Below are positions 6,650-60,207 of a stretch of 64,000 bases of DNA, one piece after another. The stretch is taken from assembly GCA_026388185.1 (NCBI GenBank), contig JAPLKG010000008.1:273149-337148 (forward strand), in the 5' to 3' direction. Position numbers and translations under genes: made by a program. The stretch is from Candidatus Eiseniibacteriota bacterium. GTDB lineage: Bacteria; Eisenbacteria; RBG-16-71-46; JAFGJU01. The notes under the pieces are model-generated. The model did not search any database, had not been told where the DNA came from, and worked only from the letters and a program-made list of their open reading frames with translations. Every line of letters starts with the position of its first letter. Position 1 is the first letter of the stretch.

Positions 6650-6650
6650 G

Positions 6651-8527: not shown

Positions 8528-8627
8528 TCTGAACGGACGGCCTGGGGTTGCACCTGGCCTGGAAACCGATCACTCGGCTGCCCCATGTTTTTCGCGACAA
8601 CGGGGTGAGGGAGACGCAGCCTAGGAA

Positions 8628-9005: not shown

Positions 9006-9012
9006 GCGTTTT

Positions 9013-11710: not shown

Positions 11711-11713
11711 GGA

Positions 11714-12415: not shown

Positions 12416-13185
12416 GGTGTCAAGTGGGCGAGAGGAACCTGGGCAAGTTGGATCTTGTTCGGTTGGTGCTCCGTTCCTTCTATCTGCAGGCGGCGTGGAA
12501 CTACGAAGGCCTGCAGACGTTGGGGTTTGCGTATGTGATGTTTCCCGTGGCCCGCAAGCTCGGTTGTGGAACGACCGCGACACGGGAATTCGCAGTGCGA
12601 CATCTCAGGCTTTTCAATACGAATCCTGTTCTTGCTTCGTACATCATCGGGGCTACTGCAAAGCTGGAAGAAGAGCGTGAAAGGGGGAAGGTGAGCGCCG
12701 CCGACGTGGAAGCGCTAAAGAGCTCGCTCGCCGTTCCTCTTGCCGCCGTCGGTGATCGTTTCTTCTGGGCAAGCATGAGACCACTTTCCGGAATGCTGGG
12801 TGTGCTGATTGCGGGTGGGTTCGGGGTCCTGGGCGCGGTTGCGTTGCTCGTGCTGTACAACGTCTTCCACATCTACTACAGGGTGAAGGGTGTGCTCAGA
12901 GGATACACGTTGGGCGCCGGTGTCGTCGGAGAGATTCCGAAGCTTAGGCTCATGACACTGAGCCGGACCGTCGGATGGGTTGGGGCCGCGACAGCGGGCA
13001 TTCTGCTCGTGGGGGTCGTTCATGCCTGGAGCGGTGGGTGGAAACGGGAGGCCCTGTTGCTGCTTCCTGTCGTGGCGATAGCGAGCGGGCTTCTGCGAGA
13101 GTCGTTTCAGAAGAGAATCACCGAGGTCGCCATCGCCGTTGGAGCCGCGGGGCTTGTTTTGACAGCCAGCGGGATTTTCGGTTAG
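12412..13185 (+). CDS. PTS mannose-family EIID membrane component
   Basis: N-terminal LRSFYLQAAWNYEGLQTLGFAY typical of EIID; ATGA start/stop overlap with IIC. Confidence 0.65.
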   Translation: MRCQVGERNLGKLDLVRLVLRSFYLQAAWNYEGLQTLGFAYVMFPVARKLGCGTTATREFAVRHLRLFNTNPVLASYIIGATAKLEEERERGKVSAADVEALKSSLAVPLAAVGDRFFWASMRPLSGMLGVLIAGGFGVLGAVALLVLYNVFHIYYRVKGVLRGYTLGAGVVGEIPKLRLMTLSRTVGWVGAATAGILLVGVVHAWSGGWKREALLLLPVVAIASGLLRESFQKRITEVAIAVGAAGLVLTASGIFG

Positions 13186-13214
13186 TATCACGTGGAACTT
13201 GTTTTGGAAGAACA

Positions 13215-13484
13215 ATGCTTGTGACAACGCTTACAATCACTAACGACCCGGGTGTTCACCTGCGGGCTGCGGCGATATTCGTGAAGGAAGCCAGCCGGTT
13301 TAGGTCGGACATTTGGGTGATGAAAGACGACATCGAAGTCAACGGCAAGAGTATTCTCGGGCTTGTCTCTCTTGTTGCCGAGCGAGGTTCGTCCATCCGT
13401 ATAAGGGTCCAAGGAGAGGATGAAACCGAGGCGCTCGCGATCCTCACTGATCTCGTTCAGAACAAGTTCTACGAGGACCAATAG
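13215..13484 (+). CDS. ptsH: Phosphocarrier protein HPr
   Basis: 89 aa; His15-region GVHLRAAA and Ser46-region GKSILGL (HprK target). Confidence 0.85.
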   Translation: MLVTTLTITNDPGVHLRAAAIFVKEASRFRSDIWVMKDDIEVNGKSILGLVSLVAERGSSIRIRVQGEDETEALAILTDLVQNKFYEDQ

Positions 13485-13496
13485 CAGGTTTTCCGC

Positions 13497-23530: not shown

Positions 23531-24261
23531 AAAGAAGGCGTCTATTGCTATGGTTCATCGTTGTGACTCTGTCGGTTCTGGCCCTTTGTCCTGTTGCTGC
23601 CTCAGGCCGGGACGTGCTCGGAAAGGGTCTGATGACGAACGTGGCCCTCATGGAGAAAACCACTTCGGCTGCGGTGGACTCGCTCGTTCAACTGTTGCCT
23701 TTTCCTCTGCGCGGGCCCGTACTTCTCGGGCCGGCACTCCCTCATGATGCAGGTTGGATGGTAGAGAACTTCCTCGGGGGAAGACTGAGAGAAAAGGGCG
23801 TCAAGGTAGTAGTCTCGGCGGTTCCTCCTGCCCCGGCCGTTCCCGACACGTCAGAGGCTGACACCACCGTCGTTAGCGATAGCTCGAGGGTCGGCGCAGC
23901 GCCAAAGAGTGAACAGGGGATGTTGACCTTGGAGTACAGGGTTACCGAACTGGGCATGGAATACCCGAGGGCCTGGAGACCTCACTACTTCGGTCAGAAG
24001 ATAGTGGAGCGTGTTGCGGTTGTTTCTCTGTATGGCAGACTGATCGACCAAGACTCCGGCACGCTGGTTTGGGCCGGTGAAGGCCGCGCCACCCAACGTG
24101 ACGTCGTCCCGGCATCCAGGCTGGCATTGCTGGAAGGCAAGGGCCCGGATTGGCAGAAGGGCACCCTGCCGGCCGGAAAGCTAGGCGGCATTGTTGAGCC
24201 CTTCGTCGTTGCTGCCATCGTAGTCGGTTTGGTCTATCTGTTCTACTCCAACAAGGAATAA
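23527..24261 (+). CDS. Hypothetical secreted protein with N-terminal signal peptide and C-terminal hydrophobic anchor
   Basis: Long ORF, host-like codon usage; N-terminal LLWFIVVTLSVLALCPVAASG; no recognisable domain. Confidence 0.4.
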   Translation: MKRRRLLLWFIVVTLSVLALCPVAASGRDVLGKGLMTNVALMEKTTSAAVDSLVQLLPFPLRGPVLLGPALPHDAGWMVENFLGGRLREKGVKVVVSAVPPAPAVPDTSEADTTVVSDSSRVGAAPKSEQGMLTLEYRVTELGMEYPRAWRPHYFGQKIVERVAVVSLYGRLIDQDSGTLVWAGEGRATQRDVVPASRLALLEGKGPDWQKGTLPAGKLGGIVEPFVVAAIVVGLVYLFYSNKE

Positions 24262-36049: not shown

Positions 36050-37588
36050 ATGGGCAGAGAAAGAAGCGCACTGCTTCTTTTGCTGGTAGTCTCACTCGTG
36101 CTGCTTGCTATTCCCACGTCTTCTTCCGCTTACCTGGAAACTATATGGCTTCGCGGTACCGGTGTTGAGCTCATTCAAGGGTCCGGAACAATCCGTCTTG
36201 CCGGCATGGGGAACCTGACAGTAGCGATTGAAGACGAAAACAATCAAGTTGACCTCTACGATTTCACGGGTAACGTCGCCGCCCTCGCTCTGGACAAGAA
36301 CACGAGCAATGTGGATTCCTGGGCCAGCTACGGCAAGTGGGCTGATGAGAAGGACGATTTCCGATGGCAGGACATCGACATTGTGCAGAGTGGGGCACTC
36401 GTCGTACTGAGAGGCAAGGGCGACTATGCGGGGGGAGTGACCATCTCAACTCGCAGACTCGATCTCAATAGAGTTGACGACCGGAATCTGAGGGAACTGC
36501 TGAAAGTAAGCTTTCCGAAGAGTGAGACTGCAAGGCCCGAAACCTCTCTGGTCGATACGGAGATAACGAGTGACCTTGTGGAGGGATACTACACTCACAA
36601 GGTTTTCGGCCGTGCTTTCCTCGGGGTGCACGGATGGGGGATGTTCGATGCTGAAAAAAAACCCGTGCGACTTCATTATGACCTGACCGACGATGTGGAC
36701 GATTTTGGTGGAGGCCTGGGCCTTGTAGTCCTGCCGACCAAGTGGATGCAAATCGGCGGAACCGTGGACTTGAATTCTCAACTTGTTGAAGCCACAAGCG
36801 TGGACGCTTTTCATCAGGATACGTACACTCAGAAACGTGGCATACTTACTGTTTCATCGCACGCCTTGCTAGAATTCATGGGCAAGCTGCGCGGCGTGAT
36901 GAACTACAAACATTCTTCCTTTGATAGCGACGAGACGTTGGACCTGCACTGGTCTGAGCTCTACGTGTTGAATCCGCAGTTGGAAACGGACGTCCGCATG
37001 AAGCTCAAGGTTGCTTCCGAGTCGCACGTGTCCGATTTTTTCGCCACTCGTTGGATCGTCTCGGGGCTTGGATTACCGCTCACGGTGAGCGGCTATTTTG
37101 ATATGTTGAACGAGGAGTTCTGGCTTCACAACGAGCCGAATGTGATCCTTTGGGTGGACGAGTATGACGAGGCCCTGAACGAATGGAATCTCAGGGGTGG
37201 GGCGTCATACAAGATTGGAGAGAAAGGGCAGGCGGGAATGGAGGTACGTCTCAATAGAGGAAAGTTGGAGAACCGACTCCCCATTGAGGAAGGATACCGG
37301 AATTTCCGCACCCTGGATGTCAGAGGTGGCGGTGAGTATCGCCTCCTGAGATGGCTCGCTCTCAGGGCCGGATATTCCCGAGCTAAAGAAGAGAGAAGCA
37401 TAGGAGTGCCCGAATACGATTTCAATTCGAACACGCTCTCTGTGGGTGCTGGGTGCTTCCTGAGAAAAGATAGCCTGAGTCTCGACGCCGCTTTCGTCAA
37501 CAAGGTGACCAGGCCGGAACAGGACATCGGTGACGGGAGAGAGACCAGGGATCAAAGCTTTACACTGTACGGTCGGTTCCTCTTCTAG
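36050..37588 (+). CDS. Putative outer-membrane beta-barrel protein
   Basis: Signal peptide LLLLLVVSLVLLAIPTSSSA; alternating amphipathic pattern; C-terminal ...YGRFLF with terminal Phe. Confidence 0.4.
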   Translation: MGRERSALLLLLVVSLVLLAIPTSSSAYLETIWLRGTGVELIQGSGTIRLAGMGNLTVAIEDENNQVDLYDFTGNVAALALDKNTSNVDSWASYGKWADEKDDFRWQDIDIVQSGALVVLRGKGDYAGGVTISTRRLDLNRVDDRNLRELLKVSFPKSETARPETSLVDTEITSDLVEGYYTHKVFGRAFLGVHGWGMFDAEKKPVRLHYDLTDDVDDFGGGLGLVVLPTKWMQIGGTVDLNSQLVEATSVDAFHQDTYTQKRGILTVSSHALLEFMGKLRGVMNYKHSSFDSDETLDLHWSELYVLNPQLETDVRMKLKVASESHVSDFFATRWIVSGLGLPLTVSGYFDMLNEEFWLHNEPNVILWVDEYDEALNEWNLRGGASYKIGEKGQAGMEVRLNRGKLENRLPIEEGYRNFRTLDVRGGGEYRLLRWLALRAGYSRAKEERSIGVPEYDFNSNTLSVGAGCFLRKDSLSLDAAFVNKVTRPEQDIGDGRETRDQSFTLYGRFLF

Positions 37589-47065: not shown

Positions 47066-48565
47066 GTGATGGCGTCTCTGTCTGCAAGAACTCTTGTCCT
47101 GGCATTGGTGGTCTCAGCCTCTTGCGCTGTCGTAACGCCACTTAGTGCCGGAGGTTTTCCCGTTGAGGGCACGGGAGACATCGAGTTCCAGGCGGACTGT
47201 GCCAGCTTTCTTGGACCCGACGGTACGGTTGAAGAGGAATTCTATGTCAGGGTGCAGAGCGAGCAGCTCAACTTCGAGAGAAGAGGCAAGAAGAATGAAG
47301 CTCACGTGCTTCTGACAGTGACTTTCGTCAACGAGTTGGGAGACGCCTACGAGATCAAGAGCCGGGAGTTCACCCCCGATCTGGAGGACAAGCCTGCGCG
47401 GGATGACTCCAATCTCTTCATGGTGCGTTACCCGATAACTCCCGCCGCAAAAAAGGTCCTAATCACGCTCGAAGATTTGAGGGCGCGCAGGCGGGGCATT
47501 TTCTACCTGTTCACCAAGGAAAGAAGGAAGGGAATCGCTGAGGCTGACGTCGAGGTTTCTGTACCCCTTTCCGGGACTCTCTCCATGAGCGACATCCAAT
47601 TTGCGCGCTCCGTCAGTCCCAGTCAGTCGCAGAGTTCCGGATCCTTCGCGAAGAGCGGGCTTGACGTGATTCCGAATCCTACAAGAAGCTACGGTCTCCG
47701 AAGGGGAACGCTGTTTGCCTATTTTGAGGTCTACGATCAGACAGAATTCGCCCTCGAGAGGGGCAGAGTCTTCTACGACGTCGTGACGTCCATTCTGGAC
47801 GTTAACAGGGAAACAGCGCTCTCAGACACCCAGAAAATCGTGTCGTCTTCTCGGCAATGGGTGCACACGATAGCCTTGGACGTCTCAAAATTGCCGACCG
47901 GAAGCTACTGGTTCAGGACCGAAGTCTGCCAGCAAGAAGGACTGAATAGAATTCTGCGTCAGAGCCAATTCAATGTGCTCTGGCAGGACGCTTCCTGGCA
48001 GAGGAACGACAGCTACGTCCTCGATGAAGCCAGTCTCTTTCTTACCAACGGGCAGTACAAGGCGTTCAAGCGCATGAATGCCGGAGAGAGAGAAGGATTC
48101 CTCGACGGATTCTGGAGACGCCTGGACCCCACGCCCGGAACCGCGACAAATGAGGTCAGGGAGGAGTTCGATCGAAGGGTAGCCTACGCAAACGCCCAGT
48201 TTTCCTTCTTCACCAAGGGCATGCTGTCCGACCGCGGGCGGATCTACGTGAGATACGGAGAGCCGGACCTCATCGACAAGCAAGTCGTGCCGACGGCGGG
48301 AGACGCGGCAGATATTCTCCTGGATGCCACCCTGAGCACGGAACAGGAAAATCTGGACCGCAGAGGAATAACGCCGAGGCTTGTCGGAAATGACAAGAGA
48401 TCGTACGAAGTGTGGATATACAACATGAAGGGGAGGCCCCTGTTCTCGGGACAGGATCAGATGATGACGCAGTCGCTCGGGTTGAAGTTCGTATTTGTTG
48501 ACGACACAGGCGCTGGGAACTACGTGCTTGACTACAGCAGCGACCGCAGCAACAAGTACCGCTAG
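47066..48565 (+). CDS. GWxTD domain-containing secreted protein
   Basis: Signal peptide; C-terminal block FLDGFWRRLDPTPGTATNEVREEFDRRVAYANAQFSFFTKGMLSDRGRIYVRYGEPDL fits the GWxTD pattern with GMLSD in place of GWxTD. Confidence 0.6.
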   Translation: MMASLSARTLVLALVVSASCAVVTPLSAGGFPVEGTGDIEFQADCASFLGPDGTVEEEFYVRVQSEQLNFERRGKKNEAHVLLTVTFVNELGDAYEIKSREFTPDLEDKPARDDSNLFMVRYPITPAAKKVLITLEDLRARRRGIFYLFTKERRKGIAEADVEVSVPLSGTLSMSDIQFARSVSPSQSQSSGSFAKSGLDVIPNPTRSYGLRRGTLFAYFEVYDQTEFALERGRVFYDVVTSILDVNRETALSDTQKIVSSSRQWVHTIALDVSKLPTGSYWFRTEVCQQEGLNRILRQSQFNVLWQDASWQRNDSYVLDEASLFLTNGQYKAFKRMNAGEREGFLDGFWRRLDPTPGTATNEVREEFDRRVAYANAQFSFFTKGMLSDRGRIYVRYGEPDLIDKQVVPTAGDAADILLDATLSTEQENLDRRGITPRLVGNDKRSYEVWIYNMKGRPLFSGQDQMMTQSLGLKFVFVDDTGAGNYVLDYSSDRSNKYR

Positions 48566-48636
48566 CTTTTTGTCGCAGAAACGGGCTCCGCATCTCCCGG
48601 TGGTACTCCGCATTCCTGCGGCGCGCGGGTTTTCGC

Positions 48637-48666
48637 TTGACATTCCATGCCCGCCTCTCTTATACA
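48637..48666 (+). promoter_or_regulatory. Sigma-70-type promoter TTGACA-18 bp-TATACA
   Basis: Consensus -35 at 48637..48642, -10-like TATACA at 48661..48666, about 65 bp upstream of the pfk start. Confidence 0.45.
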
Positions 48667-48731
48667 TATTTCACCAATCTTGTGAGAACGGACGTCTTTT
48701 CCGTGTGGTTTTCTATTCGGTGGAGGTCAAA

Positions 48732-49769
48732 GTGAGGATTGCAATCCTGACCGGTGGTGGTGATTGTCCCGGTCTCAACGCTGTCATAAGGGCTGTGGTC
48801 AGGAGGACGTTTCAAAGCTACGGAGGTCAAGTTCTGGGCATAAGTGACGGGTGGGCGGGACTAATTGAGGGAAGGCTTTCCCCGCTGGACATGCGCGCAG
48901 TTTCTGGGATTCTTCCCAAAGGCGGGACTATACTGGGCACGTCCAGAACGAATCCGTTCAAGGTGGAACAAGGTGTGGAGAGGATCAGGGAAAATCTGGC
49001 GAAATTCGGCATCGAGGCCTTGATCGTGGTTGGAGGGGAAGACACCCTGGGCGTGGCCACCACACTTTTCGAAATGGGTTTCAAGATCGTCGGCGTACCG
49101 AAGACAATCGACAATGACCTCTCCGGGACGGACTACACCTTCGGATTTGACACGGCCGTGAACGTCGCCACTGAGGCCATAGACAGGCTCCACACCACTG
49201 CCGAATCCCACAACCGCGTCATGGTGGTGGAAGTCATGGGCAGGCACACGGGTTGGATAGCAGTGGAGGCCGGCATGGCAGGTGGGGCCGATGTCGTGCT
49301 GATACCCGAGATTCCCATCAGCGTGGACGAGGTCTGTAAGCTCATCGTGCAGCGTCATCAGAAAGGGAAGGACTTCAGTATCGTTGTCGTGGCGGAGGGC
49401 GCCAAATTCCAGGACAAGGACATCTCTCGCATGATTGTGCAGGACGAAAAGGTGGACGCCTTCGGTCATGTTCGTCTGGGCGGAATCGGTGCCATTCTGG
49501 CTCGTGCGATAGAGGAGAAGATAGGGTTCGAAACCAGGTACACGGTGCTGGGACACATACAGAGGGGAGGCACCCCGACGGCGTTCGACAGGGTCCTCGG
49601 GACTCGATTCGGCGTGGCCGCCGCCGACCTCGTGGCGAAGGGGGATTTCGGCAAGATGGTCAGCCTTCAGGGCAACAAGATCAGGGCCGTGGACCTCAAG
49701 GAAGCGATCGGCAAACTGAAGACGGTCGACATGGAGCTCTACGAGATGGCAACCATCTTCTTTGGTTAG
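48732..49769 (+). CDS. pfk: 6-phosphofructokinase, probably pyrophosphate-dependent
   Basis: GTG 48732 five nt after GGAGG; GGDCPGLNAVIR; GGEDT (Asp at the ATP/PPi discriminating position) and PKTIDND (Lys). Confidence 0.8.
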   Translation: MRIAILTGGGDCPGLNAVIRAVVRRTFQSYGGQVLGISDGWAGLIEGRLSPLDMRAVSGILPKGGTILGTSRTNPFKVEQGVERIRENLAKFGIEALIVVGGEDTLGVATTLFEMGFKIVGVPKTIDNDLSGTDYTFGFDTAVNVATEAIDRLHTTAESHNRVMVVEVMGRHTGWIAVEAGMAGGADVVLIPEIPISVDEVCKLIVQRHQKGKDFSIVVVAEGAKFQDKDISRMIVQDEKVDAFGHVRLGGIGAILARAIEEKIGFETRYTVLGHIQRGGTPTAFDRVLGTRFGVAAADLVAKGDFGKMVSLQGNKIRAVDLKEAIGKLKTVDMELYEMATIFFG

Positions 49770-49843
49770 ACGAAGCGGAGTGGACGGGTTTTTCGGGCCG
49801 CAATCGGGAAGTTACGACGACACGAAAAGCGAGGTATGGAAAA

Positions 49844-50773
49844 GTGACATTGGTGACCAATCGCGAGCTGCTGCAGAGAGCAACCAAAGAAGGTTACGCA
49901 GTCGGAGCCTTCAACACTAACAATCTGGAATTCCTTCAGGCCGTCACCTCAGCGGCAAGTGAAGAGAACTCACCAGTGATAGTCGCAATCTCCGAGGGGG
50001 CGCTCAAGTATGCGGGATTCGGCATGATTGTGACAATGGTGAGAGAGATTGCCACGAGACTGCCCGTGCCCGTTTCGCTTCATCTTGATCACGGCAAGGA
50101 TGCTGCCGTTATCAAGGAATGCGTCGAGGGCGGATTCACGTCGGTCATGGTAGACGCCTCGGACAAGGAATTCGACGAGAACGTCCGGATTACGAGGAGT
50201 GTCGTTGAGCTTGCAAGACCCAGGGGTGTTTCCGTCGAGGCCGAGTTGGGCAGGCTTTCAGGCATAGAGGAGGGGATTTCGGTGACCGAGAGAGAAGCAT
50301 TTCTGACCGACCCTTCCCAGGCGGCCGAGTTTGTCAAGAGAACGGGTGTAGACTCTCTGGCGGTGGCCGTGGGTACGTCGCACGGTGCTTACAAATTCAA
50401 AGGAGAGTCCGTCTTGGTGATTGAGAGGATACGCGAGATAAGGGATGCGACGGGTGGTTTACCGCTCGTTCTTCACGGCGCCTCCGGTGTGAGTCAGGAG
50501 CTTGTTGCGAAAGCGACACGCTATGGAGCAAGTCTGGGAAGGCCCGCGGGTGTTCCGGATGACAGCATCAGAGAAGCAATAAGACTGGGCGTGGGCAAGG
50601 TGAACATAGACACAGACATGAGGCTTGCGTTCATGGCCTCGCTGAGGGAGACCTTGTCGACCAAGACTAGCGAGTTCGATCCTCGTAAGATACTGGGTCC
50701 GGCCAGAGATTCCGTCAAAGAGGTGGTAAAGGGGAAGATGAGGCTCTTTGGGAGCAGCAATAGGATTTCTTGA
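49844..50773 (+). CDS. fba: Class II fructose-bisphosphate aldolase
   Basis: SLHLDHG and TSHGAYKF metal/substrate motifs; about 309 aa. Confidence 0.85.
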   Translation: MTLVTNRELLQRATKEGYAVGAFNTNNLEFLQAVTSAASEENSPVIVAISEGALKYAGFGMIVTMVREIATRLPVPVSLHLDHGKDAAVIKECVEGGFTSVMVDASDKEFDENVRITRSVVELARPRGVSVEAELGRLSGIEEGISVTEREAFLTDPSQAAEFVKRTGVDSLAVAVGTSHGAYKFKGESVLVIERIREIRDATGGLPLVLHGASGVSQELVAKATRYGASLGRPAGVPDDSIREAIRLGVGKVNIDTDMRLAFMASLRETLSTKTSEFDPRKILGPARDSVKEVVKGKMRLFGSSNRIS

Positions 50774-50928
50774 CGACGTTCGCCGGGCTCGAAGGGCCTT
50801 GTCGGCATTCTCGGCAACTCCTCCCACCTTTCAGGGGTGAACATCACGCCCCGTCATCGCCTGCAGCGGCTCAGTGGCAGATTCTACTCCGATCTGCGCA
50901 CGCCCTTTCACTCTCGGTGGAAACCGCG

Positions 50929-51957
50929 ATGGGAAAATCAAGAATAATCTGCACCTTGGGGCCTTCCAGCCAGGACGCGTCCACGCTCGGCGCCATGATG
51001 CGAGCGGGGATGGCCGTGGCCAGGCTCAATTTCTCTCACGGCACTCATCGCGAGCACCAATCTCGACTGGACCTCGTGAGGAGACTAAGCGAGAAACACG
51101 GCCGGGACGTGAGGATACTTCAGGATCTCCAGGGTTACAGAATAAGGATCGGCAAGTTTAAGGGCCGAAAATGGATTGTGCTGAAGGCGGGACAAATAGT
51201 TTTTCTGACCAACAAAAGCGAATTGACGGGCCGGGATATCGTGCCTTTCGACTACAGGGGTTCGCTGGCCGACATCAAGACAGGTAGTTCAATATACGTT
51301 GACGACGGCAACATAGCGTTGAAGGTCCGGACTAAGACCAAGGACTACATTCGGGCGGAGGTGATCGTTCCGGGAGTGCTCAAGGAGAACAAAGGCGTCA
51401 ACATCCCGGAAGTCAATCTGCGATTCAAGGGGCTCACGGACAAAGACAGAACGGACCTCGAATTCGGCGTCAGGAACAGAGTCGACTTCGTCGCCCAGTC
51501 GTTTGTGAGCGGCAAAGAGGACATTCTTTGTCTGAGAAGCGTCCTACGTGAGAGCCGAGCCGATTGCCGAGTGATCGCAAAGATCGAGAATCGCAGGGGG
51601 ATAGACAACATAGACGAGATACTGAGTGTGTCCGACGGCATCATGATAGCCCGCGGAGATATGGGGGTCTCTTTGCCGATATTCCAAATTCCTGTGCTCC
51701 AAAAGATGATTATCAGAAAGTGCAAACAAAGAAGAAAATTCGCCGTCACGGCCACTCAGATGCTTGAAAGCATGACGGAGCACCTGAGGCCCACTCGCGC
51801 AGAAGTGAGCGACGTGGCCAACGCGATGATAGACGGCTCGGATTACCTCATGCTCTCTGCAGAAACGGCCGTCGGCAAGCACCCCGTGGAGGCCGTTGAG
51901 ATGATGACCGAGATTATCGATTTCACGACGCGTTCTCTCGGAAAACTCCATTCTTGA
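50929..51957 (+). CDS. pyk: Pyruvate kinase, short form lacking the C-terminal alpha/beta domain
   Basis: SRIICTLGPSS and ARLNFSHG motifs, PK signature VIAKIENRRGIDNIDEI, MIARGDMGV; protein ends after the A domain at 342 aa. Confidence 0.75.
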   Translation: MGKSRIICTLGPSSQDASTLGAMMRAGMAVARLNFSHGTHREHQSRLDLVRRLSEKHGRDVRILQDLQGYRIRIGKFKGRKWIVLKAGQIVFLTNKSELTGRDIVPFDYRGSLADIKTGSSIYVDDGNIALKVRTKTKDYIRAEVIVPGVLKENKGVNIPEVNLRFKGLTDKDRTDLEFGVRNRVDFVAQSFVSGKEDILCLRSVLRESRADCRVIAKIENRRGIDNIDEILSVSDGIMIARGDMGVSLPIFQIPVLQKMIIRKCKQRRKFAVTATQMLESMTEHLRPTRAEVSDVANAMIDGSDYLMLSAETAVGKHPVEAVEMMTEIIDFTTRSLGKLHS

Positions 51958-52009
51958 GAGACTCGTCGAGAGGCAAGGTGCGAGGAGCCTGGAGCGCAGG
52001 TAGAACAAC

Positions 52010-53113
52010 ATGAAGAAGACGGCACAACCGAAGAAACGAATTGCAGTTCTCACCGGCGGAGGAGATTGCCCCGGCATAAACGCGGTCATCAGGGCGGTGA
52101 CGAAGAAGGCGATCGTTGCGTACGGCATGGAAGTCATCGGAATCGAAGATGGCTACGAAGGAATCATTCACGGCTGGCATAGGAAGCTTACGTACGAAGA
52201 CGTTTCCGGAATACTTACACTGGGTGGTACGATACTTGGCGCCTCCAAGACGGCAAACCCATACAAGTACGCTGTGAAGCGAAAAGGCAAGCTGGAGTTC
52301 GAGGACGTCTCGCGCGTCGCGATCGACAACCTGCAGAAGCTCGACGTAGCGGGCCTTGTGTGCATAGGCGGAGATGGAACGCTGGGCATTGCACGCGACC
52401 TGTGCGAAGACGGCGTCCGCGTCGTCGGAGTGCCGAAGACGATCGACAACGACATCAGGGGGACCGACGTCTGCTTCGGTTTTGACTCCGCGGTGTGGGT
52501 CGCCACGGAAGGTATTGACAGGATTCACACGACTGCCCAATCGCATCATCGCATAATGATTGTGGAGGTGATGGGGCACAAGGCCGGATGGATTGCCCTT
52601 CATTCCGGAGTCGCCGGTGGAGGAGACATCATCCTCATCCCGGAGATTCCGTATGACGTTGAAAAGATCGCTTTGAAGATACAGGAACGGCATCACAGAC
52701 GCAGGAGCTTCACCATCGTGGTCGTGGCCGAGGGGGCAAGGCCAAAGGGAGGAGACGTCGTAATACAGAGGATGGTCAAGGAAAGCGCCGATCCTGTCCG
52801 CCTGGGCGGCGTAGGCTTTGTTCTTGGAGAAAAATTGGAGCGACTCACAGGTTTCGAAACACGAACCACCGTAATGGGACACGTTCAGAGGGGGGGGAGC
52901 CCGACGCCGTTTGACAGGGTACTGGCCACCGAGCTGGGTGCAAGGGCGGTGGACATGATAGAGGAAAAAGCCTTCGGCCACATGGTGGGGGTGAAAGGAA
53001 ATGCGCTCGTCGACGTCCCTTTGGGCGTTGTGACGGGAGGGCCAAGGGTGGTGCCGCGCAACCAGAGATTGTTAGAGGCGGCGCGCGCCCTGGGGACATA
53101 TTTCGGCGACTGA
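52010..53113 (+). CDS. pfk: 6-phosphofructokinase (ATP-type GGDG signature)
   Basis: GGDCPGINAVIR, CIGGDGTLG, PKTIDND, MGHKAGWIA. Confidence 0.85.
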   Translation: MKKTAQPKKRIAVLTGGGDCPGINAVIRAVTKKAIVAYGMEVIGIEDGYEGIIHGWHRKLTYEDVSGILTLGGTILGASKTANPYKYAVKRKGKLEFEDVSRVAIDNLQKLDVAGLVCIGGDGTLGIARDLCEDGVRVVGVPKTIDNDIRGTDVCFGFDSAVWVATEGIDRIHTTAQSHHRIMIVEVMGHKAGWIALHSGVAGGGDIILIPEIPYDVEKIALKIQERHHRRRSFTIVVVAEGARPKGGDVVIQRMVKESADPVRLGGVGFVLGEKLERLTGFETRTTVMGHVQRGGSPTPFDRVLATELGARAVDMIEEKAFGHMVGVKGNALVDVPLGVVTGGPRVVPRNQRLLEAARALGTYFGD

Positions 53114-53144
53114 TCAGACACGCTGTTCGAACGGAGGCGATGAC

Positions 53145-54863
53145 GTGAATTTCCGAAAGGAAAAGACGAGGATTGCCTATTTTTCCATGGAGATAGGTCT
53201 TGATTCGAAGATACCCACCTACAGCGGAGGTCTGGGGGTCTTGGCCGGGGACACGATAAGATCCTGCGCCGATCTGAACGTGCCCATTATTGCTGTCACC
53301 CTTCTGTATCGAGACGGATACTTCCGCCAGAAACTGGACGCGTATGGAAACCAGGAGGAACTGGCGTCGGAGTGGAATCCAGGGGAACTCCTGGCGCTAT
53401 TGCCCGTCAAGGTGAGCGTTCAGATAGAGACGAGAACCGTGTCTGTCCAGGCGTGGGAGTATCTAGTGACGGGTATTGGCGGCCACGTTGTGCCCGTGAT
53501 TTTCCTGGATGCGGATGTTCCCGAAAACGGAGCGTACGACCGCAGCCTGACGCATTGCCTCTATGGCGGCGACGACAAGTACAGACTTTGCCAGGAAGTG
53601 ATATTGGGAGTCGGTGGGGTGAGAATGCTCAAGGAACTCGGATACCACGAGATAGTGCGGTACCACATGAATGAAGGTCATTCGAGTCTGCTGACGCTCG
53701 AGCTGCTGAACGAGAGAAAGAAATCTGGCGCTGGAAGGAAAAGGGTCGACAAGATTGACGACACAAGATCCGATTGGGACGTTGACGGAGTGAGGAGGAT
53801 GTGTGTGTTTACGACCCACACGCCTGTTCCCGCGGGACACGACCAATTCTCTTATAGTCTTGTGAGTCAGGTGTTTGGCGATTTCATTCCCGTGGACTTC
53901 CTGAAGCAAATTGGCGGCGGCGACACGTTCAACATGACTCTTCTGGCCATGAATCTGAGCCACTACGAGAATGGCGTTGCAAAGGAGCACGGCAAGGTCT
54001 CTCAAGTGCTGTATCCGGGATATCACATCGACTCGATAACCAACGGGATCTATTCGGCCAACTGGGTCTGCGACAGCTTCAAGGGGTTGTTCGACAAATA
54101 CATTCCGGGCTGGAGAAACGACCCGTTCTCTCTGCGTTACGCCCTCAGTATCCCCAAGGAAGAAATATGGAGCGCTCATCGAGAGGCGAAAAGAGAGCTC
54201 ATAGACTATACGAACGCCAAGGCAAACGCGGGCATGGATGGCGAAGTTCTGACGATCGGCTTCGCGCGCAGGGCGACGGCTTATAAGAGAGCGAATCTCG
54301 TCTTCTCTGACGTCGAGAGATTGACGAGTATTGCCGGAACCTCCGGCAGGGTGCAGTTCATCTTCTCCGGCAAGGCCCACCCCAGAGACATGCAGGGGAA
54401 GGAGCTGATCAAGCAGGTGGTTGCCGTGTCCCGGCGACTCGGAGACCAAGTCAGGGTCGCTTATCTGGAGAACTACGACATGGAATTGGCGAGAATGCTG
54501 ATTGCCGGAGCAGACCTGTGGCTCAACACGCCTAGAAAACCTGAGGAGGCTTCCGGAACCTCCGGCATGAAGGCGGCTCACAACGGAGTTCCAAGCCTCA
54601 GCATTCTTGACGGCTGGTGGATCGAAGGATGCATCGAGGGTCTCACGGGATGGTCGATCGGGACGGTCGTGGCTGAGGAGAGCAGCGACGTCGAGGACGC
54701 CGGTTATCTGTATGACAGGCTGGAGAAGGTAGTCATTCCCACGTTCTACGGGAACCGTGACAGGTGGATCGAGATGATGCGGCATTCAATCGCCATCAAT
54801 GGTTCATTCTTCAACACACACAGGATGGTGCTGCAGTACGTACTGAACGCCTACACGTATTGA
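53145..54863 (+). CDS. glgP: Alpha-glucan (glycogen/maltodextrin) phosphorylase, short GT35-type
   Basis: N-terminal IAYFSMEIGLDSKIPTYSGGLGVLAGD and PLP-site region EASGTSGMKAAHNGVPSLSILDGWW. Confidence 0.85.
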   Translation: MNFRKEKTRIAYFSMEIGLDSKIPTYSGGLGVLAGDTIRSCADLNVPIIAVTLLYRDGYFRQKLDAYGNQEELASEWNPGELLALLPVKVSVQIETRTVSVQAWEYLVTGIGGHVVPVIFLDADVPENGAYDRSLTHCLYGGDDKYRLCQEVILGVGGVRMLKELGYHEIVRYHMNEGHSSLLTLELLNERKKSGAGRKRVDKIDDTRSDWDVDGVRRMCVFTTHTPVPAGHDQFSYSLVSQVFGDFIPVDFLKQIGGGDTFNMTLLAMNLSHYENGVAKEHGKVSQVLYPGYHIDSITNGIYSANWVCDSFKGLFDKYIPGWRNDPFSLRYALSIPKEEIWSAHREAKRELIDYTNAKANAGMDGEVLTIGFARRATAYKRANLVFSDVERLTSIAGTSGRVQFIFSGKAHPRDMQGKELIKQVVAVSRRLGDQVRVAYLENYDMELARMLIAGADLWLNTPRKPEEASGTSGMKAAHNGVPSLSILDGWWIEGCIEGLTGWSIGTVVAEESSDVEDAGYLYDRLEKVVIPTFYGNRDRWIEMMRHSIAINGSFFNTHRMVLQYVLNAYTY

Positions 54864-55041
54864 TGGGCGCTGACAATCGGTGTCGAAGCCCGGTGTCGAC
54901 GGAACGCACCGCCGCAAGGCCCGAGCAACGTCGAAGACGCGCGTCGGCACGGCTCCTGCGCCTCACTTTGTGGTTCACTTCGAGGGCGTTCTGTGCTAGA
55001 GTTGCCGGCAATAAGTACCCTAGCTAACGGAGGTAAGAGCA

Positions 55042-56046
55042 ATGGCAATCAGAGTTGGCATTAACGGATTTGGACGGATAGGAAGGCTTGTTCTCAGGTC
55101 CGGATACAAGGAAAGCGGCCTCGAATTCGTTGCGGTAAACGACGTGACTGACGTAGCCACGATGGCGCATCTGCTCAAGTACGACTCGGTCCACGGGATA
55201 TTTCCTGACGAGATAAAGAGGGAGGCCGAGACCATCAAAATCGGTTCCAGCGCCAGCGTGAAGGTATTCTCCGAGAAAGACCCCGCCAATCTACCCTGGA
55301 AGTCGCTGGGTGTGGATATTGTGATTGAATCCACGGGCAAGTTCACGGAGAGGGATCTGGCCGCCAAACACATTTCCGCTGGGGCGAGAAAGGTGATGAT
55401 TTCCGCGCCGGGAAAGAAGGCCGACGCGACTATTGTGATGGGAGTAAACGAGAACGTCTACGATCCTTCCAAGCACCACGTTGTTTCCATCGCTTCGTGT
55501 ACGACGAACTGCCTTGCCCCCGTCGCGAAGGTGCTCAACGACAAATTTCAGATTGTTCACGGCCTCATGACGACCATACACGCTTACACGAACGATCAGG
55601 TGATTCTTGATTTTCCGCACAAGGATCTGAGAAGGGCCAGGGCGGCGGCCGTTTCAATGATTCCCACGACGACGGGCGCGGCGAAGGCGATCGGCCTCGT
55701 GCTGCCGGAGCTCGAAGGGAAGCTGGACGGCCTGGCAGTGAGGGTGCCCGTGGTTGACGCCTCTCTGGTGGACCTGGTCGTCGACGTGAAGAAAGCCACG
55801 ACCGTGGATGAAGTCAGAAACGTCTTCAAGGAAGCCGCGAATGGCGCCATGAAGCGCTACCTGCAGTACAACGAGGACCCCATCGTCTCTGTTGACATCG
55901 TGGGAAATCCGCACAGTTCAATCGTCGACGGACCCCTCTGCTCGGTCATCGGCGGCACCATGGTCAAGGTTCTGGCCTGGTATGACAACGAGTGGGGTTT
56001 CTGTCAGCGTGTGATTGACCTTCTCAGACTCATGATGAAGACCTGA
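55042..56046 (+). CDS. gap: Glyceraldehyde-3-phosphate dehydrogenase (type I)
   Basis: INGFGRIGR NAD-binding motif and active site ASCTTNCLAP. Confidence 0.95.
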   Translation: MAIRVGINGFGRIGRLVLRSGYKESGLEFVAVNDVTDVATMAHLLKYDSVHGIFPDEIKREAETIKIGSSASVKVFSEKDPANLPWKSLGVDIVIESTGKFTERDLAAKHISAGARKVMISAPGKKADATIVMGVNENVYDPSKHHVVSIASCTTNCLAPVAKVLNDKFQIVHGLMTTIHAYTNDQVILDFPHKDLRRARAAAVSMIPTTTGAAKAIGLVLPELEGKLDGLAVRVPVVDASLVDLVVDVKKATTVDEVRNVFKEAANGAMKRYLQYNEDPIVSVDIVGNPHSSIVDGPLCSVIGGTMVKVLAWYDNEWGFCQRVIDLLRLMMKT

Positions 56047-56096
56047 AGAAGGAAGGGGACCGTCGGAACCGAAGAATCCAGAAAGGGGACTCGGAG

Positions 56097-57299
56097 ATGC
56101 TGAGAAAGCTCAGCGTGAGGGATCTTCCTCTCTCGGGAAAGAGAGTACTTACCAGAGTCGATTTCAACGTTCCTCTCGACAAAGAGGGGAACATCTCGGA
56201 TTCGACGCGTATTGAAGCCTCCATGCCTACCATTCGCTACATGGTTGAGAAGGGCGGGCGAATAGTCCTGATGTCTCATCTCGGCAGACCGAAGGGCAAG
56301 GTCGTTGCAGGGATGAGCCTGGCCCCGGTGGCCGATAAGCTCCGGAGTTTTCTCCGCAAAGACGTTCTGTTCGCAACGGATTGCATAGGCGATCCCGCAA
56401 TGAAGGCGGCGCTCTCCCTCAAGGACGGAGACGTTGCATTGCTGGAGAATCTCCGATTCCATCGGGAGGAAGAGGCCAACGACGAAAAATTCTCGCGCGA
56501 ACTGGCTTCGCTCGGAGAGGTCTACGTCAACGACGCCTTTGGTTCGGCCCACAGAGCCCATGCGTCTACGGTCGGTGTGACCAGATACATCAGTCTGTGC
56601 GCGGCCGGCTTTCTCATGCAGAAGGAGGTCGAGTATCTGGGAAAACTCCTGGAAGAGCCCAAGCGACCTTTCGTGGCGGTGTTTGGCGGTGCGAAGGTGT
56701 CGGACAAGATCGGCGTCGTTCGGAACCTCGTTGACAAGGTCGACAAGATCCTCATAGGTGGGGGCATGATGTTCACGTTTCTGGCCGCCAAGGGATTGAA
56801 GATCGGGCAATCGATTCTGGAAGAGGAGAGCATTCCCGTTGCCAAAGAGATAATGGAGAGAGCCAGGAACAAGTCCGTTGAACTCATCCTGCCCGTTGAT
56901 TGCGTCGTGTCCCCCTCCGTGAAAGACGCCGCCGAGACCAGGATCGTCCCCGTTGAAGAAATCCCCGAAGGACTTGCCGGTGTTGACATAGGTCCTCGCA
57001 CGATAGAGCAATTCAGGGGAGCCCTGGCCGGTGCCAAGACAGTGCTTTGGAACGGACCGATGGGCGTTTTCGAAATAGAAGCCTATAGTGCCGGCACGGA
57101 GGCCGTGGCTCGCATGCTCGCAGAAGCCACTTCCTCGGGTGCGACCACGATCGTCGGTGGAGGGGATTCCGCGGCGGCGATTGTCAAGGCCGGCTTGGAG
57201 AATAGGGTCTCTCACGTGTCCACCGGTGGTGGGGCTTCTCTTGAGTTTCTTGAGGGTCTGGAACTCCCCGGGGTGGCCGCCCTCACAGACAAGCGTTGA
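56097..57299 (+). CDS. pgk: Phosphoglycerate kinase
   Basis: RVDFNVPL N-terminal motif and full-length Pgk organisation. Confidence 0.95.
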   Translation: MLRKLSVRDLPLSGKRVLTRVDFNVPLDKEGNISDSTRIEASMPTIRYMVEKGGRIVLMSHLGRPKGKVVAGMSLAPVADKLRSFLRKDVLFATDCIGDPAMKAALSLKDGDVALLENLRFHREEEANDEKFSRELASLGEVYVNDAFGSAHRAHASTVGVTRYISLCAAGFLMQKEVEYLGKLLEEPKRPFVAVFGGAKVSDKIGVVRNLVDKVDKILIGGGMMFTFLAAKGLKIGQSILEEESIPVAKEIMERARNKSVELILPVDCVVSPSVKDAAETRIVPVEEIPEGLAGVDIGPRTIEQFRGALAGAKTVLWNGPMGVFEIEAYSAGTEAVARMLAEATSSGATTIVGGGDSAAAIVKAGLENRVSHVSTGGGASLEFLEGLELPGVAALTDKR

Positions 57300-57314
57300 C
57301 AAAGGAAAGAGGCC

Positions 57315-58067
57315 ATGCGGAAAAAGATCGTAGCAGGCAATTGGAAGATGTATAAAACCCCCGGCGAAGCCGTTTCTCTGGTGACACAGATCATCGCGTC
57401 CGCTCCTCCTCGTTCGGATCGTGACGTCGTGCTCTGCCCTCCGTTCACGGCTCTTTCCCGCGTGTCACAACTGCTCAAGGGCTCGCGTATCGAGCTGGGA
57501 GCGCAAAACCTGCACTGGGAGAAGGAGGGGGCCTACACCGGAGAGATCTCCGCGCCGATGCTCAAAGAGCTGGGATGCGAATACGTGATTGTGGGACATT
57601 CTGAGCGCAGGCAGTACTTCGGCGATGACGATTCGGTCGTTGCCAAGAAGCTTGGGGCGGTGCTTGCGGAGGGAATGACGCCCATCCTCTGCGTCGGCGA
57701 GAAGCTGGAGGAGAGAGAGGCAGCGAGAACGGAAAGTGTGCTTGAGTCGCAGATCAAGGGAGCTCTGGGCGGCTTTGACGCAAGGCAACTCGTGGACCTG
57801 GTGGTTGCATACGAACCCGTCTGGGCGATAGGGACGGGTAAGACAGCCACGTCGGAGATGGCTGTGGGAGCTCATAAATTCATAAGGAAGCTGCTTGACA
57901 CCATGTTCGGGTCTCCCTTCGCAGAGCAAACCCGAATTCAGTACGGGGGAAGCGTCAAACCGGAGAACGCTTCCGAACTCCTTGGGGAGTCCGAGATTGA
58001 CGGAGCACTCGTAGGTGGGGCGAGCCTCAAGGCCGATTCGTTCCTGAGAATCGTCGCCGCCGGTTGA
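57315..58067 (+). CDS. tpiA: Triosephosphate isomerase
   Basis: AGNWKM, IVGHSERR, AYEPVWAIGTG motifs. Confidence 0.95.
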   Translation: MRKKIVAGNWKMYKTPGEAVSLVTQIIASAPPRSDRDVVLCPPFTALSRVSQLLKGSRIELGAQNLHWEKEGAYTGEISAPMLKELGCEYVIVGHSERRQYFGDDDSVVAKKLGAVLAEGMTPILCVGEKLEEREAARTESVLESQIKGALGGFDARQLVDLVVAYEPVWAIGTGKTATSEMAVGAHKFIRKLLDTMFGSPFAEQTRIQYGGSVKPENASELLGESEIDGALVGGASLKADSFLRIVAAG

Positions 58068-58124
58068 GAGTGCGAGGTGCGATGCGGGCCGGCCGGGGCG
58101 ACCGCCCGGCGACGGTAAGGCCCG

Positions 58125-58153
58125 TTGACGCGAGGGAGAATTTCTGTTAAAGT
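58125..58153 (+). promoter_or_regulatory. Possible sigma-70-like promoter TTGACG-17 bp-TAAAGT upstream of secG
   Basis: -35-like hexamer at 58125..58130, 17-nt spacer, weak -10 at 58148..58153. Confidence 0.3.
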
Positions 58154-58212
58154 AAGGTGTTGTTGTAGAATTGGGTTGGCGTACCGTTTTTTGTTCATGA
58201 TGGGGGTCTGAC

Positions 58213-58758
58213 GTGTTTGCCTTCTTATTGGTTCTTCACTTGCTGATAACCGCTGCTCTGGTCATTGTCATTCTGCTTCAATCTGGCAAGGGAGGGGGGC
58301 TCGCCGGAGCATTTGGGGGGGGAGGCGGCAGCCAGACGATTTTCGGCGGCAGGGGTGCTGCGACTTTCTTGAGCAGGTCTACCGCCGTGCTGGGCGCCGC
58401 GTTCATGCTCACTTCCATGAGCTTGGCCCTGCTGACGACTAGGGGTCCAGTGAAGCGAGAGCGGAGCGTGATTGAGAACGTCATCAGGAAGGAGAGGGCG
58501 TCACAGCCCGCCCAGACACCACAAGGCGGAGTTCCTTCAGGGAGTCTTCCTGCGGGGAGAGTTCCGCTTGGGCAAACTCCAATCGGCGGTTCTTCTCAGT
58601 CGACGTCTCCGGCCGGTACTCAGTCAACCGTGACTCCGGGAACGGGACAAGTGGCCCCGGGAGCCGGTGTAGTCCCTAGTCAGACGGCGCCTGCTGCCGG
58701 GACGACGCAACCGACCCAACAGAAGAAGCCAACCGGAACATCGGCTACCGGAAAATAG
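58213..58758 (+). CDS. secG: Preprotein translocase subunit SecG with long low-complexity C-terminal extension
   Basis: GTG start; two TM segments flanking Gly-rich loop (LLQSGKGGGLAGAFGGGGGSQTIFG); ~100-aa Q/T/P/G/S-rich tail; conserved gap-pgk-tpiA-secG-tRNA-Leu order. Confidence 0.8.
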   Translation: MFAFLLVLHLLITAALVIVILLQSGKGGGLAGAFGGGGGSQTIFGGRGAATFLSRSTAVLGAAFMLTSMSLALLTTRGPVKRERSVIENVIRKERASQPAQTPQGGVPSGSLPAGRVPLGQTPIGGSSQSTSPAGTQSTVTPGTGQVAPGAGVVPSQTAPAAGTTQPTQQKKPTGTSATGK

Positions 58759-58777
58759 ACGCCCTAGCTTCCCACGT

Positions 58778-58862
<85 letters not shown>

Positions 58863-58944
58863 TAAATCCCATAACTGCTTGTCGCCGTGTAAGTTGGCAC
58901 GACAGACACTTTTCCTTTTCGCATCCCCAATCAACAGTGACCGA

Positions 58945-59964
58945 TCATCGTACACGCTCCCACTTCCGCACTGTAACTGAGTCTCTAACAGCGAGCATTT
59001 CGTAGATTGAACCGTCTGTCCCTACAATCCAGGGCCCCTTGCCGTAGGTTAAAGTCGAGCGTTCATACCTCGGGAAGTCAATCACGGCGAGCATTCTTCC
59101 ATCTGGAGAATATTTGCTTATCCTTTCGGACGAAGCAGTATCTGTGACCACGAAACTCTGTAGATAGACATTACTCAGACTATCTGTCCCCAAAGAGTCT
59201 CCCGGTAACTCTGCCCAGCCTTTGACCAACTTGCCTTCGTCATCAAACAGAATCGGGTTCCCTTTTACATCCACCTTGCTGTTGCACCGCGCGAAGGACC
59301 GAAAAGGACCTGTGGATGCAAAGATCCCTTCCCGCAAACTCGACAATTGGCTAGAGTCAGGGAGAACTCTTCCCCTTTCCACGAGCTTTATTGATTTCGT
59401 TGCGCGCCAATCGGCTAAATAGACATTCTCATGTTGATCCGACACAATCCCCGCCGAATTGAACTGCGGATACCCCTCTTCCGAACGGCAGAAACTCCAA
59501 GGCACTGCGACTGGCACATTTCTCACTGAATCCACGCCTGCTGCCTTCAAGAACACCCTATATCTGTCCTCCGCATCAGAAGTCTCGCAGAGAATGTATA
59601 TGTCGCCGTTAGGGGGCAGAGTCATGTCCGTGGGAAACAGTAGGTCAACTTGCCAGGCCACGGCCTTGATCGTGTCCACGAATGCTCCATTATTTCCGTA
59701 GACCTTTATGTTTCCTTTCACCCCATCATATATGTAGATGTTCCCATCGGCGCCCATAGTGAAAAATAGAGCCCCGAGATAATTCCCATCGTATCCGTAG
59801 ACCTTCTTCAGTCCGAATTCACTCTCCCCGCCACCGTACTGAGCCTGAATGAGGTTTCGGGGTCTGTAATTCTCGGCCGACAACGCGGTAGCAGGAATGA
59901 GCAAGGCCAAACCCAGCAACGCCGCGATCGATACCAGTCTTGTATTGACTCTCGAACAATCCAT
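58945..59964 (-). CDS. Hypothetical secreted protein, beta-propeller-like repeats; foreign codon usage
   Basis: ATG 59964 (complement) nine nt after AAGGAGG; signal peptide RLVSIAALLGLALLIPATALSAE; repeated GNIYIYDG / GDIYIL / NVYLAD segments; third positions A/T-rich. Confidence 0.5.
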   Translation of the reverse strand: MDCSRVNTRLVSIAALLGLALLIPATALSAENYRPRNLIQAQYGGGESEFGLKKVYGYDGNYLGALFFTMGADGNIYIYDGVKGNIKVYGNNGAFVDTIKAVAWQVDLLFPTDMTLPPNGDIYILCETSDAEDRYRVFLKAAGVDSVRNVPVAVPWSFCRSEEGYPQFNSAGIVSDQHENVYLADWRATKSIKLVERGRVLPDSSQLSSLREGIFASTGPFRSFARCNSKVDVKGNPILFDDEGKLVKGWAELPGDSLGTDSLSNVYLQSFVVTDTASSERISKYSPDGRMLAVIDFPRYERSTLTYGKGPWIVGTDGSIYEMLAVRDSVTVRKWERVR

Positions 59965-60207
59965 CAGCCACACCTCCTTAACTCGGAGAACTGGCGGATA
60001 ACACGCACCCTAGCCCAGGATGGTGATCAAGATACAGGTGCTTTACACTAAACGCCCAGAGAAGCTCAGGAGCGATTCGGGGGACACCGATACACTATAC
60101 TCTCCGATTCCTGTGCTTTGGGTCAACGCGTGACACGAGAGCACGGGATCCGTTCAAAATCCCTGACAGTTTTGCCTGAAGTTGGTCCTGTCGCAACATG
60201 GGTGAAA

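Follow-up and report, generated by a model that had tools for sequence, protein, structure and literature searches.

The window analysed here is a stretch of 64,000 nucleotides of contig JAPLKG010000008.1 (positions 273,149 to 337,148, forward strand) from Candidatus Eiseniibacteriota bacterium. It contains a block of Embden-Meyerhof genes in which two 6-phosphofructokinase (PFK) genes, named PFK1 (upstream) and PFK2 (downstream), enclose the genes for a class II fructose-1,6-bisphosphate aldolase (fba) and a short pyruvate kinase (PK; pyk). This co-directional arrangement had been described in a first-pass annotation and is confirmed by the open reading frames (ORFs) and by Pfam matches, the E-values of which leave no room for chance. 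From residues said to discriminate between phosphoryl donors, that annotation had also proposed a dual entry into glycolysis, using ATP in one enzyme and inorganic pyrophosphate (PPi) in the other. The active-site residues of the two enzymes suggest a reversible PPi-dependent PFK side by side with a nucleotide-dependent PFK, for the latter of which ADP is a more likely donor than ATP; we give this combined reading an even chance of being correct.

From PFK1 to the secG-like gene, all genes of the block are co-directional (Table 1). The gene order from the GWxTD protein through PFK1, fba, the short PK, PFK2, gap, pgk, and tpi to secG is found again in both related genomes that were compared, Latescibacteria bacterium DG_63 and Eiseniibacteriota CP070702.1 (a 2.69-Mb record). 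The glucan phosphorylase gene, which starts 31 nt after PFK2, stands between PFK2 and gap in the present genome only; in DG_63 and CP070702.1, PFK2 adjoins gap directly and no phosphorylase is found at the same position. Relative to the related genomes, the phosphorylase gene is thus an insertion. In other lineages (25 loci), each PFK type stands alone within ~5 kb, which makes the pairing of PFK1 with PFK2 a trait of this lineage. At NCBI, a Candidatus Eisenbacteria metagenome-assembled genome has proteins that match PFK2 and the short PK with 100% identity. A promoter and terminator scan of positions 48300–58600 gave counts at or below the shuffled expectation and was not used to set operon limits; a literature search on glycolysis in Eisenbacteria yielded nothing relevant.

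Table 1. Genes of the glycolytic block, with positions in the window.
Gene or product	Position	Strand	Description and basis
GWxTD-domain protein	47066–48565		Directly before PFK1 here and in both related genomes
PFK1	48732–49769	+	345-aa group III PFK-A with PPi-type signature; PF00365, TIGR02483 PFK_mixed
Class II fructose-1,6-bisphosphate aldolase (fba)	49844–50773	+	TIGR01859, 372 bits (cutoff 343); PF01116, E = 2.2e-103
Short pyruvate kinase (pyk)	50929–51957	+	342 aa, A/B barrel domains only; PF00224 over residues 3–323
PFK2	52010–53113	+	367-aa group III-like PFK-A, G104/I108/K124; PF00365
Alpha-glucan (glycogen/maltodextrin) phosphorylase (glgP)	53145–54863	+	TIGR02094, 550 bits
Glyceraldehyde-3-phosphate dehydrogenase (gap)	55042–56046	+	ORF translation; orthologs in both related genomes with Gp_dh_N/Gp_dh_C, 78% identical
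Phosphoglycerate kinase (pgk)	56097–57299	+	ORF translation; PF00162 on orthologs in both related genomes
Triosephosphate isomerase (tpiA)	57315–58067	+	ORF translation; PF00121 on orthologs in both related genomes
secG-like gene, last of the conserved block	58213–58758	+	SecG-like membrane segment at N-terminus; SecG (PF03840) after tpi in related genomes

Residues are numbered as in E. coli PfkA (Met not counted, catalytic D127), on the basis of an L-INS-i alignment including both PFKs. According to the literature, Asp104 occupies the place of the ATP α-phosphate and keeps nucleotides out, and mutation of that Asp to Gly in the Entamoeba histolytica PFK switched the donor from PPi to ATP. 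Lys124 binds PPi, yet it is not diagnostic alone, as the ATP-PFK of T. brucei has K124, too. All ATP-PFK structures solved have Gly as residue 108. For cyanobacterial PFK-As and one PFK-A of Azospirillum, ADP rather than ATP has been found to be the donor, and the motifs GGDGSxxG for ATP, GGDGSxxI for ADP, and GG(D/E)D(S/T)xxx for PPi have been proposed (Shen et al. 2024). According to the same study, the ADP enzymes retain K124, while R72 is replaced mostly by Ser or Asn, and rare ADP-PFK-A homologs occur in the FCB and PVC groups and in Thermodesulfobacteriota.

PFK1 has a GTG start codon with GGAGG 6 nt upstream. It matches PF00365 over its full length (E = 3.6e-114, profile positions 1–276 of 277) and TIGR02483 PFK_mixed with 478.7 bits, which is above the cutoff of 430.55. 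The GGED and PKTIDND motifs reported earlier for this copy, and their reading as Asp104/Lys124, are borne out by the alignment to E. coli PfkA: GGEDTLGV (49032–49055; GGEDT being residues 101–105) supplies E103, D104, and V108, and PKTIDND (49098–49118, residues 123–129) supplies K124. R72 and R171 are kept, and a loop insertion is absent. GGEDT conforms to the PPi motif in the literature, GG(D/E)D(S/T), and both Asp104 and Lys124 are present. In both PFKs, the catalytic D127 and the fructose 6-phosphate (F6P)-site residues T125, R162, M169, E222, R243, H249, and R252 are intact.

The signature of PFK1 is conserved among close homologs. V108 accompanies GGEDT in 116 of the 120 closest and GGDDT in another three; D104 is present in 119/119 readable sequences, and R72 and R171 in 118 of 119. 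In a census covering 93 single-domain proteins, each representing a cluster at 50% identity, and with position 72 counted by ungapped motif anchoring, ten members are of the D104/K124 type, and all of these resemble PFK1 in having R72, V/L/M at position 108, and no insertion. Judged by these residues, PFK1 is likely to be PPi-dependent. It is of the same size class as the short (~40 kDa) group III PPi-PFK-As of Amycolatopsis methanolica (Pfp Q59126), Thermoproteus tenax, and Methanospirillum hungatei, with which it shares D104, K124, and GG(D/E)D(S/T), but originates from an uncultured phylum of the FCB group. To the actinobacterial sequences compared, which are G104 types and not characterised PPi enzymes, PFK1 is ~54–56% identical. 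Searches of PDB sequences with both PFKs matched structures of group I, of eukaryotic, and of long PPi-dependent PFKs only, and none of group III.

As a PPi-dependent enzyme, PFK1 would catalyse F6P + PPi ↔ FBP + Pi (FBP, fructose 1,6-bisphosphate) near equilibrium and would, therefore, serve both glycolysis (F6P to FBP) and gluconeogenesis (FBP to F6P). By analogy with other PPi-PFKs, it may also phosphorylate sedoheptulose 7-phosphate.

PFK2 is 50% identical to PFK1 and likewise matches PF00365 over its full length (E = 4e-104, profile positions 1–277 of 277). Against TIGR02483 it scores 427.6 bits, 3 bits under the cutoff, yet this is its best-scoring family. The alignment that served for PFK1 also upholds the earlier description of the downstream copy as carrying GGDG and PKTIDND with Gly104: GGDGTLGI (52367–52390) supplies D103, G104, and I108, with Thr at position 105, and PKTIDND (52433–52453) supplies K124. 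Besides D103 and D127, D129 is intact. Position 72 is occupied by Lys (K80 in PFK2's own numbering, 52247–52249) and position 171 by His (H190, 52577–52579), and an 11-residue insertion lies inside TANPYKYAVKRKGKLEFEDV (52250–52309). An insertion after residue ~75 is common to PFK2 and the PFKs of Nostoc PCC 7120 (plasmid alpha), Ilyobacter, Pseudoalteromonas, and Monoglobus.

The signature is conserved in the PFK2 clade. Its 120 homologs have G104, K124, and K72 without exception (120/120 each), I108 in 119/120, and H171 in 114/120, with N171 in four. The K72/H171 pair occurs in none of the characterised or reference PFKs compared and looks like a relocated positive charge within the phosphoryl-transfer site. 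Clade members with at least 60% identity come, in a genome scan, only from uncultured genomes; apart from the Eisenbacteria lineage, these carry the labels Omnitrophota, Planctomycetes, Syntrophaceae, Dehalococcoidia, Atribacteria, Aerophobetes, and Aminicenantes. As a separate observation, the best-scoring PFK2 relatives in the representative library include P0241 (730 aa), P0243 (2620 aa), P0253, and P0291, which are of double length or much longer, with between two and six stretches resembling a PFK; they may be tandem or fused PFKs distinct from the duplication known in eukaryotes, or else assembly or eukaryotic sequences.

The first-pass annotation had read PFK2 as an "ATP-like pattern with a mixed signature", which does not hold. 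The combination of G104 and K124 is normal in nucleotide-dependent group III enzymes; what sets PFK2 apart is I108, K72, and the insertion, in place of G/A108 and R72. The canonical ATP motif GGDGSxxG is matched at G104 and missed at position 108, where PFK2 has Ile. Nor does PFK2 have the G124 (PGTIDND) of the short ATP-PFKs, which is present in the pfkA products of E. coli, Anoxybacillus, and Parabacteroides, and it departs from the actinobacterial group III ATP pattern (GGEGTxxA, R72, no insertion) as well. By contrast, GGDGTLGI agrees with the ADP motif GGDGSxxI save for Thr instead of Ser at position 105, and K124 is also as in the ADP enzymes. The cyanobacterial plasmid PFKs carry the same G104/I108/K124 signature. 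R72 is replaced throughout the PFK2 clade, but by Lys, whereas the ADP-PFK-As mostly have Ser or Asn.

The census contains further sequences with the G104/I108/K124 signature. Among its representatives, 33 have these residues, and R72 is found in none of them (N in 28, S in 4, T in 1), while R171 is present in 30/30 readable sequences; the commonest spacing between the GGT and GGDG motifs in this class is 48, which is the spacing of PFK2. Membership of the I108 class and loss of R72 covary strongly in the census. Compared with the ADP-PFK-A1/A2 enzymes of cyanobacterial and alphaproteobacterial origin (Synechocystis Sll1196 and Sll0745, Azospirillum brasilense; Shen et al. 2024), PFK2 shares G104, I108, K124, the loss of R72, the insertion, and an intact F6P site; it differs by T105 for S, K72 for S/N, and H171 for R, and by its position outside the cyanobacterial clade.

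A neighbour-joining (NJ) tree was calculated from 134 sequences and 335 columns with 100 bootstraps, in which cyanobacterial plasmid genes take the place of the assayed Synechocystis enzymes and actinobacterial sequences, all of them GGEGTxxA (G104, A108), represent group III. Azospirillum, the source of an assayed ADP-PFK, was not found among the plasmids searched with the Nostoc protein. Phylogenetic placement had been suggested in the first-pass annotation as a check, and it separates the two copies: PFK1 clusters with the actinobacterial representatives of group III, and apart from PFK2, in 91/100 bootstraps. A placement of both in one functional clade, named there as a refuting outcome, is not what the tree shows. 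According to the literature, the PPi-PFK of A. methanolica and the ATP-PFK of Streptomyces coelicolor are both members of the group III cluster. PFK2's own clade is monophyletic in 100/100 bootstraps, and PFK2 together with the cyanobacterial and Ilyobacter sequences excludes PFK1 in 62/100. The NJ sister of the PFK2 clade, P0271, has the ordinary N72/R171. Since the 33-member class also has N/S/T72 and R171, PFK2 appears to be a derived offshoot within the class that bears the ADP signature. Tentatively, and with somewhat less than an even chance, PFK2 would represent a large lineage of ADP- or other non-ATP-dependent PFK-As whose active site has been rewired with K72/H171.

The divergence at position 104 bears on whether the two enzymes are plain isoenzymes with one shared donor, their residue differences reflecting regulation or kinetics. 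For both proteins the "mixed-substrate" family TIGR02483 is the best match, half of their residues are identical, and reviews call sequence-based donor prediction unreliable in this family, all of which would suit such isoenzymes. D104 versus G104 is, however, the best-validated donor determinant, as demonstrated by the E. histolytica mutation; each state is fixed in its own clade (in every readable PFK1 homolog and every PFK2 homolog, respectively), and the clades are held apart with 91% support. We regard a common donor as very improbable. The earlier proposal of different donors thus stands as likely, given D104 versus G104 and the PPi motif of PFK1; the part that fails is the ATP-like nature of the PFK2 donor.

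For PFK2, ADP as the donor has a roughly even chance in our estimate. Gly104 would give a nucleotide room to bind, Ile108 would fill the adenine cleft of ATP-PFKs, and Arg72 is gone, as in the cyanobacterial ADP-dependent PFK-As; because of the filled cleft and the missing Arg72, the reaction would more likely be F6P + ADP → FBP + AMP than one with ATP. In either case, PFK2 would be effectively one-way and nucleotide-driven. A conserved Embden-Meyerhof operon would encode two K124-bearing "short" group III PFK-A isoenzymes with different phosphoryl donors.

If PFK2 uses ATP, perhaps with inhibition by PPi, the dual ATP/PPi entry would be restored; we consider this somewhat unlikely, albeit the strongest of the competing explanations. 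It is favoured by G104, which permits nucleotide binding, and by the historical association of G104/K124 with ATP use (Bapteste et al., as reported in a paper citing that work); the same pair is found in actinobacterial group III sequences, relatives of ATP-PFKs according to the literature, and K124 in the T. brucei ATP-PFK. K72, moreover, retains a positive charge at the R72 site of ATP-PFKs; PPi inhibition of an ATP enzyme coexisting with a PPi-PFK has been documented; and the NCBI name of PFK2 is "ATP-dependent 6-phosphofructokinase". That name, however, is an automatic family-level label which is also attached to cyanobacterial PFKs of the ADP-dependent type. Ile108 argues more directly against ATP, as the corresponding residue is Gly in every solved ATP-PFK and Ala in the actinobacterial sequences, from which PFK2 stands apart in the 91/100 bootstraps given above. 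In comparison with the actinobacterial group III ATP-PFKs (S. coelicolor PfkA, Mycobacterium tuberculosis PfkA), PFK2 shares the short G104 and K124 type at 46–47% identity, but the actinobacterial type has GGEGTxxA with A108, R72, R171, and no insertion, where PFK2 has I108, K72, H171, and an insertion. Finally, with the sole clade III G104/K124 enzyme tried with ATP and GTP, that of P. thermosuccinogenes (CDQ83_10650; Gly117/Lys137, equivalent to G104/K124), neither of these nucleotides nor PPi gave any activity; ADP was not tried.

This last enzyme leads to another alternative, namely that PFK2 is no working F6P 1-kinase with a standard donor: it could be a paralog of reduced catalytic power or with a regulatory role, or it could act on another sugar phosphate, such as sedoheptulose 7-phosphate or tagatose 6-phosphate, with PFK1 alone carrying the flux. 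Of the three PfkA-family paralogs of B. thetaiotaomicron, two depend on ATP, while PfkC (BT3356) is inactive with ATP and PPi, ADP not having been tried. Both CDQ83_10650 and PfkC have G104/K124 equivalents and an N-terminal offset implying an insertion, like PFK2. The nearest cultured-organism relative of the PFK2 clade is the Bacteroides-type paralog (48–50% identity), with EVMGH common to both, and by elimination this paralog is probably PfkC. Two near-universal transition-state arginines, moreover, are changed in PFK2 (R72 to K, R171 to H). On the other hand, the Bacteroides-type paralog has N103 (GGNGT) and R72, whereas PFK2 has D103 and K72; PFK2 thus possesses the D103 that PfkC would lack, and D127, D129, and all F6P-binding residues are intact as well. 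Retention of the signature in 119–120 of 120 homologs from many phyla argues for selection on the active site, the gene lies mid-way in a conserved glycolytic operon, and the "inactive" relatives have never been tried with ADP. Taken together, we deem a PFK2 without standard activity or with another role improbable, and less so only than a shared donor. The GGNGT/K124/EVMGH paralog family, in which Asn replaces the Mg-binding Asp103, is seen in Bacteroides finegoldii (L008, 298–1308) and in Monoglobus (L102, 298–1374).

Several points weigh against the combination of a PPi-dependent PFK1 with an ADP-dependent PFK2. Both donor assignments are read from motifs. PFK2 has K72, not the S/N of the ADP-PFK-As, and H171 where R171 is otherwise universal; the positive charge regained at position 72 could restore the contact to the third phosphate, that is, ATP use. 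The G104/K124 history, the K124 of the T. brucei enzyme, and that of the actinobacterial-type sequences count here, too. The cyanobacterial clade, for which ADP use has been validated by experiment, excludes PFK2 in 89/100 bootstraps, the tree is of NJ type only, and support for the deep node (62%) is moderate. Identity of PFK2 is 39.9% (tblastn) or 41.0% (alignment) to the Nostoc PFK and ~35–37% (tblastn) or 42% (alignment) to the Acaryochloris PFKs, so that PFK2 sits around the limit of 40% quoted for ADP-PFK-As. As regards PPi, Pfam scans of the 64-kb window, including 30 further ORFs, turned up PTS (phosphotransferase system), glycogen, and housekeeping genes but no pyruvate, phosphate dikinase (PPDK), proton-pumping pyrophosphatase (H+-PPase), or other PPi-linked gene; in the same scans of the window, no fructose-1,6-bisphosphatase was found.

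Genes for sugar and glycogen metabolism are abundant in the window and encode a GH57 amylase/glucanotransferase, IIC and IID components of a phosphotransferase system (PTS), Enzyme I, PGI, a sugar-1-phosphate nucleotidyltransferase, PGM, and a GH57 branching enzyme. With PFK1 as a PPi enzyme and PFK2 as an ADP enzyme, the glucan phosphorylase next to PFK2 and the glycogen genes nearby would allow glycogen to enter glycolysis at no cost in ATP, and a route to triose phosphates that spares ATP in this way is plausible.

Several bacteria possess two or three PFK-A paralogs of which one is PPi-dependent and reversible and the other nucleotide-dependent, among them Clostridium thermocellum, Thermotoga maritima, A. 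methanolica, and B. thetaiotaomicron, and the coexistence of ATP- and PPi-PFKs has been called common. In those cases that were checked by sequence or placement, the nucleotide-dependent partner belongs to the canonical group I type: PfkA of C. thermocellum groups with the Geobacillus and Lactobacillus PFKs, and two canonical Parabacteroides paralogs have GGDG[ST]xxG and PGTIDND (G124). In the present locus, by contrast, both PFKs are group III-like and flank fba-pyk. An operon shared by both PFK genes is not described in the literature found on those dual-PFK organisms. For specialists, coexisting PFKs with different donors are textbook-level knowledge, and the pairing as first stated is ordinary. 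Thus, of the proposed dual ATP/PPi entry, the use of two donors remains likely, while the arrangement as such is not new, the second donor would rather be ADP, and the window bears no independent sign of a PPi economy. The literature found does not describe the operon with both isoenzymes around fba-pyk, the K72/H171 clade, or the size of the G104/I108/non-R72 class in uncultured bacteria.

The short PK between the two PFKs has its own peculiarity. It matches TIGR01064 at profile positions 2–335 of 476. The solved PKs that match it are all at least 470 aa long and align only over their first ~340–400 residues; their C-terminal ~130 or more residues are never aligned to it. As the 120 closest homologs are equally short (336–377 aa, barrel domain only), absence of the C-terminal domain, which provides the allosteric site and the tetramer interface, is no truncation artefact. 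These homologs come from Zixibacteria, Planctomycetota, Phycisphaerae, Omnitrophota, and Nitrospirota. The 352-aa PK model NF005234 of NCBIfam gives a weak match.

Should the ADP assignment of PFK2 and the PPi assignment of PFK1 hold true, glycolysis starting from glycogen would use no ATP in its preparatory phase in this lineage, and ADP-dependent PFK-As would be far wider spread than in the cyanobacteria plus a small number of alphaproteobacteria. This would also account for the "inactive" third PFK paralogs of Clostridia and Bacteroides, for which a re-assay is suggested, and it would change the ATP yields estimated in reconstructing the metabolism of many candidate phyla, where such genes are automatically annotated as "ATP-dependent".

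Elsewhere in the window, a few further observations were made. The secG-like protein at the end of the glycolytic block is 181 aa long, compared with 152–154 aa in the related genomes, and has a long C-terminal tail rich in Pro, Thr, Gln, and Gly. At positions 3812–15257, co-directional genes encode rpoN (sigma-54), HPr kinase, RapZ, a GH57 amylase/4-alpha-glucanotransferase, mannose-family IIC and IID components of the PTS, and Enzyme I, which looks like a regulatory PTS/carbon-control module beside glycogen genes. The phosphoenolpyruvate-utilising protein at 13497–15257 was considered as a PPDK and rejected; it has Enzyme I architecture. Three sizeable ORFs, at 23527–24261, 36050–37588, and 58945–59973 (− strand), coding for 244, 512, and 342 aa, respectively, gave no Pfam match at E ≤ 1e-5. 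Over positions 1–58800, nearly all sizeable genes lie on the + strand, and the GC skew is positive in every 2-kb bin but 58001–60000; gene strand and GC skew over this range are consistent with a long leading-strand stretch.

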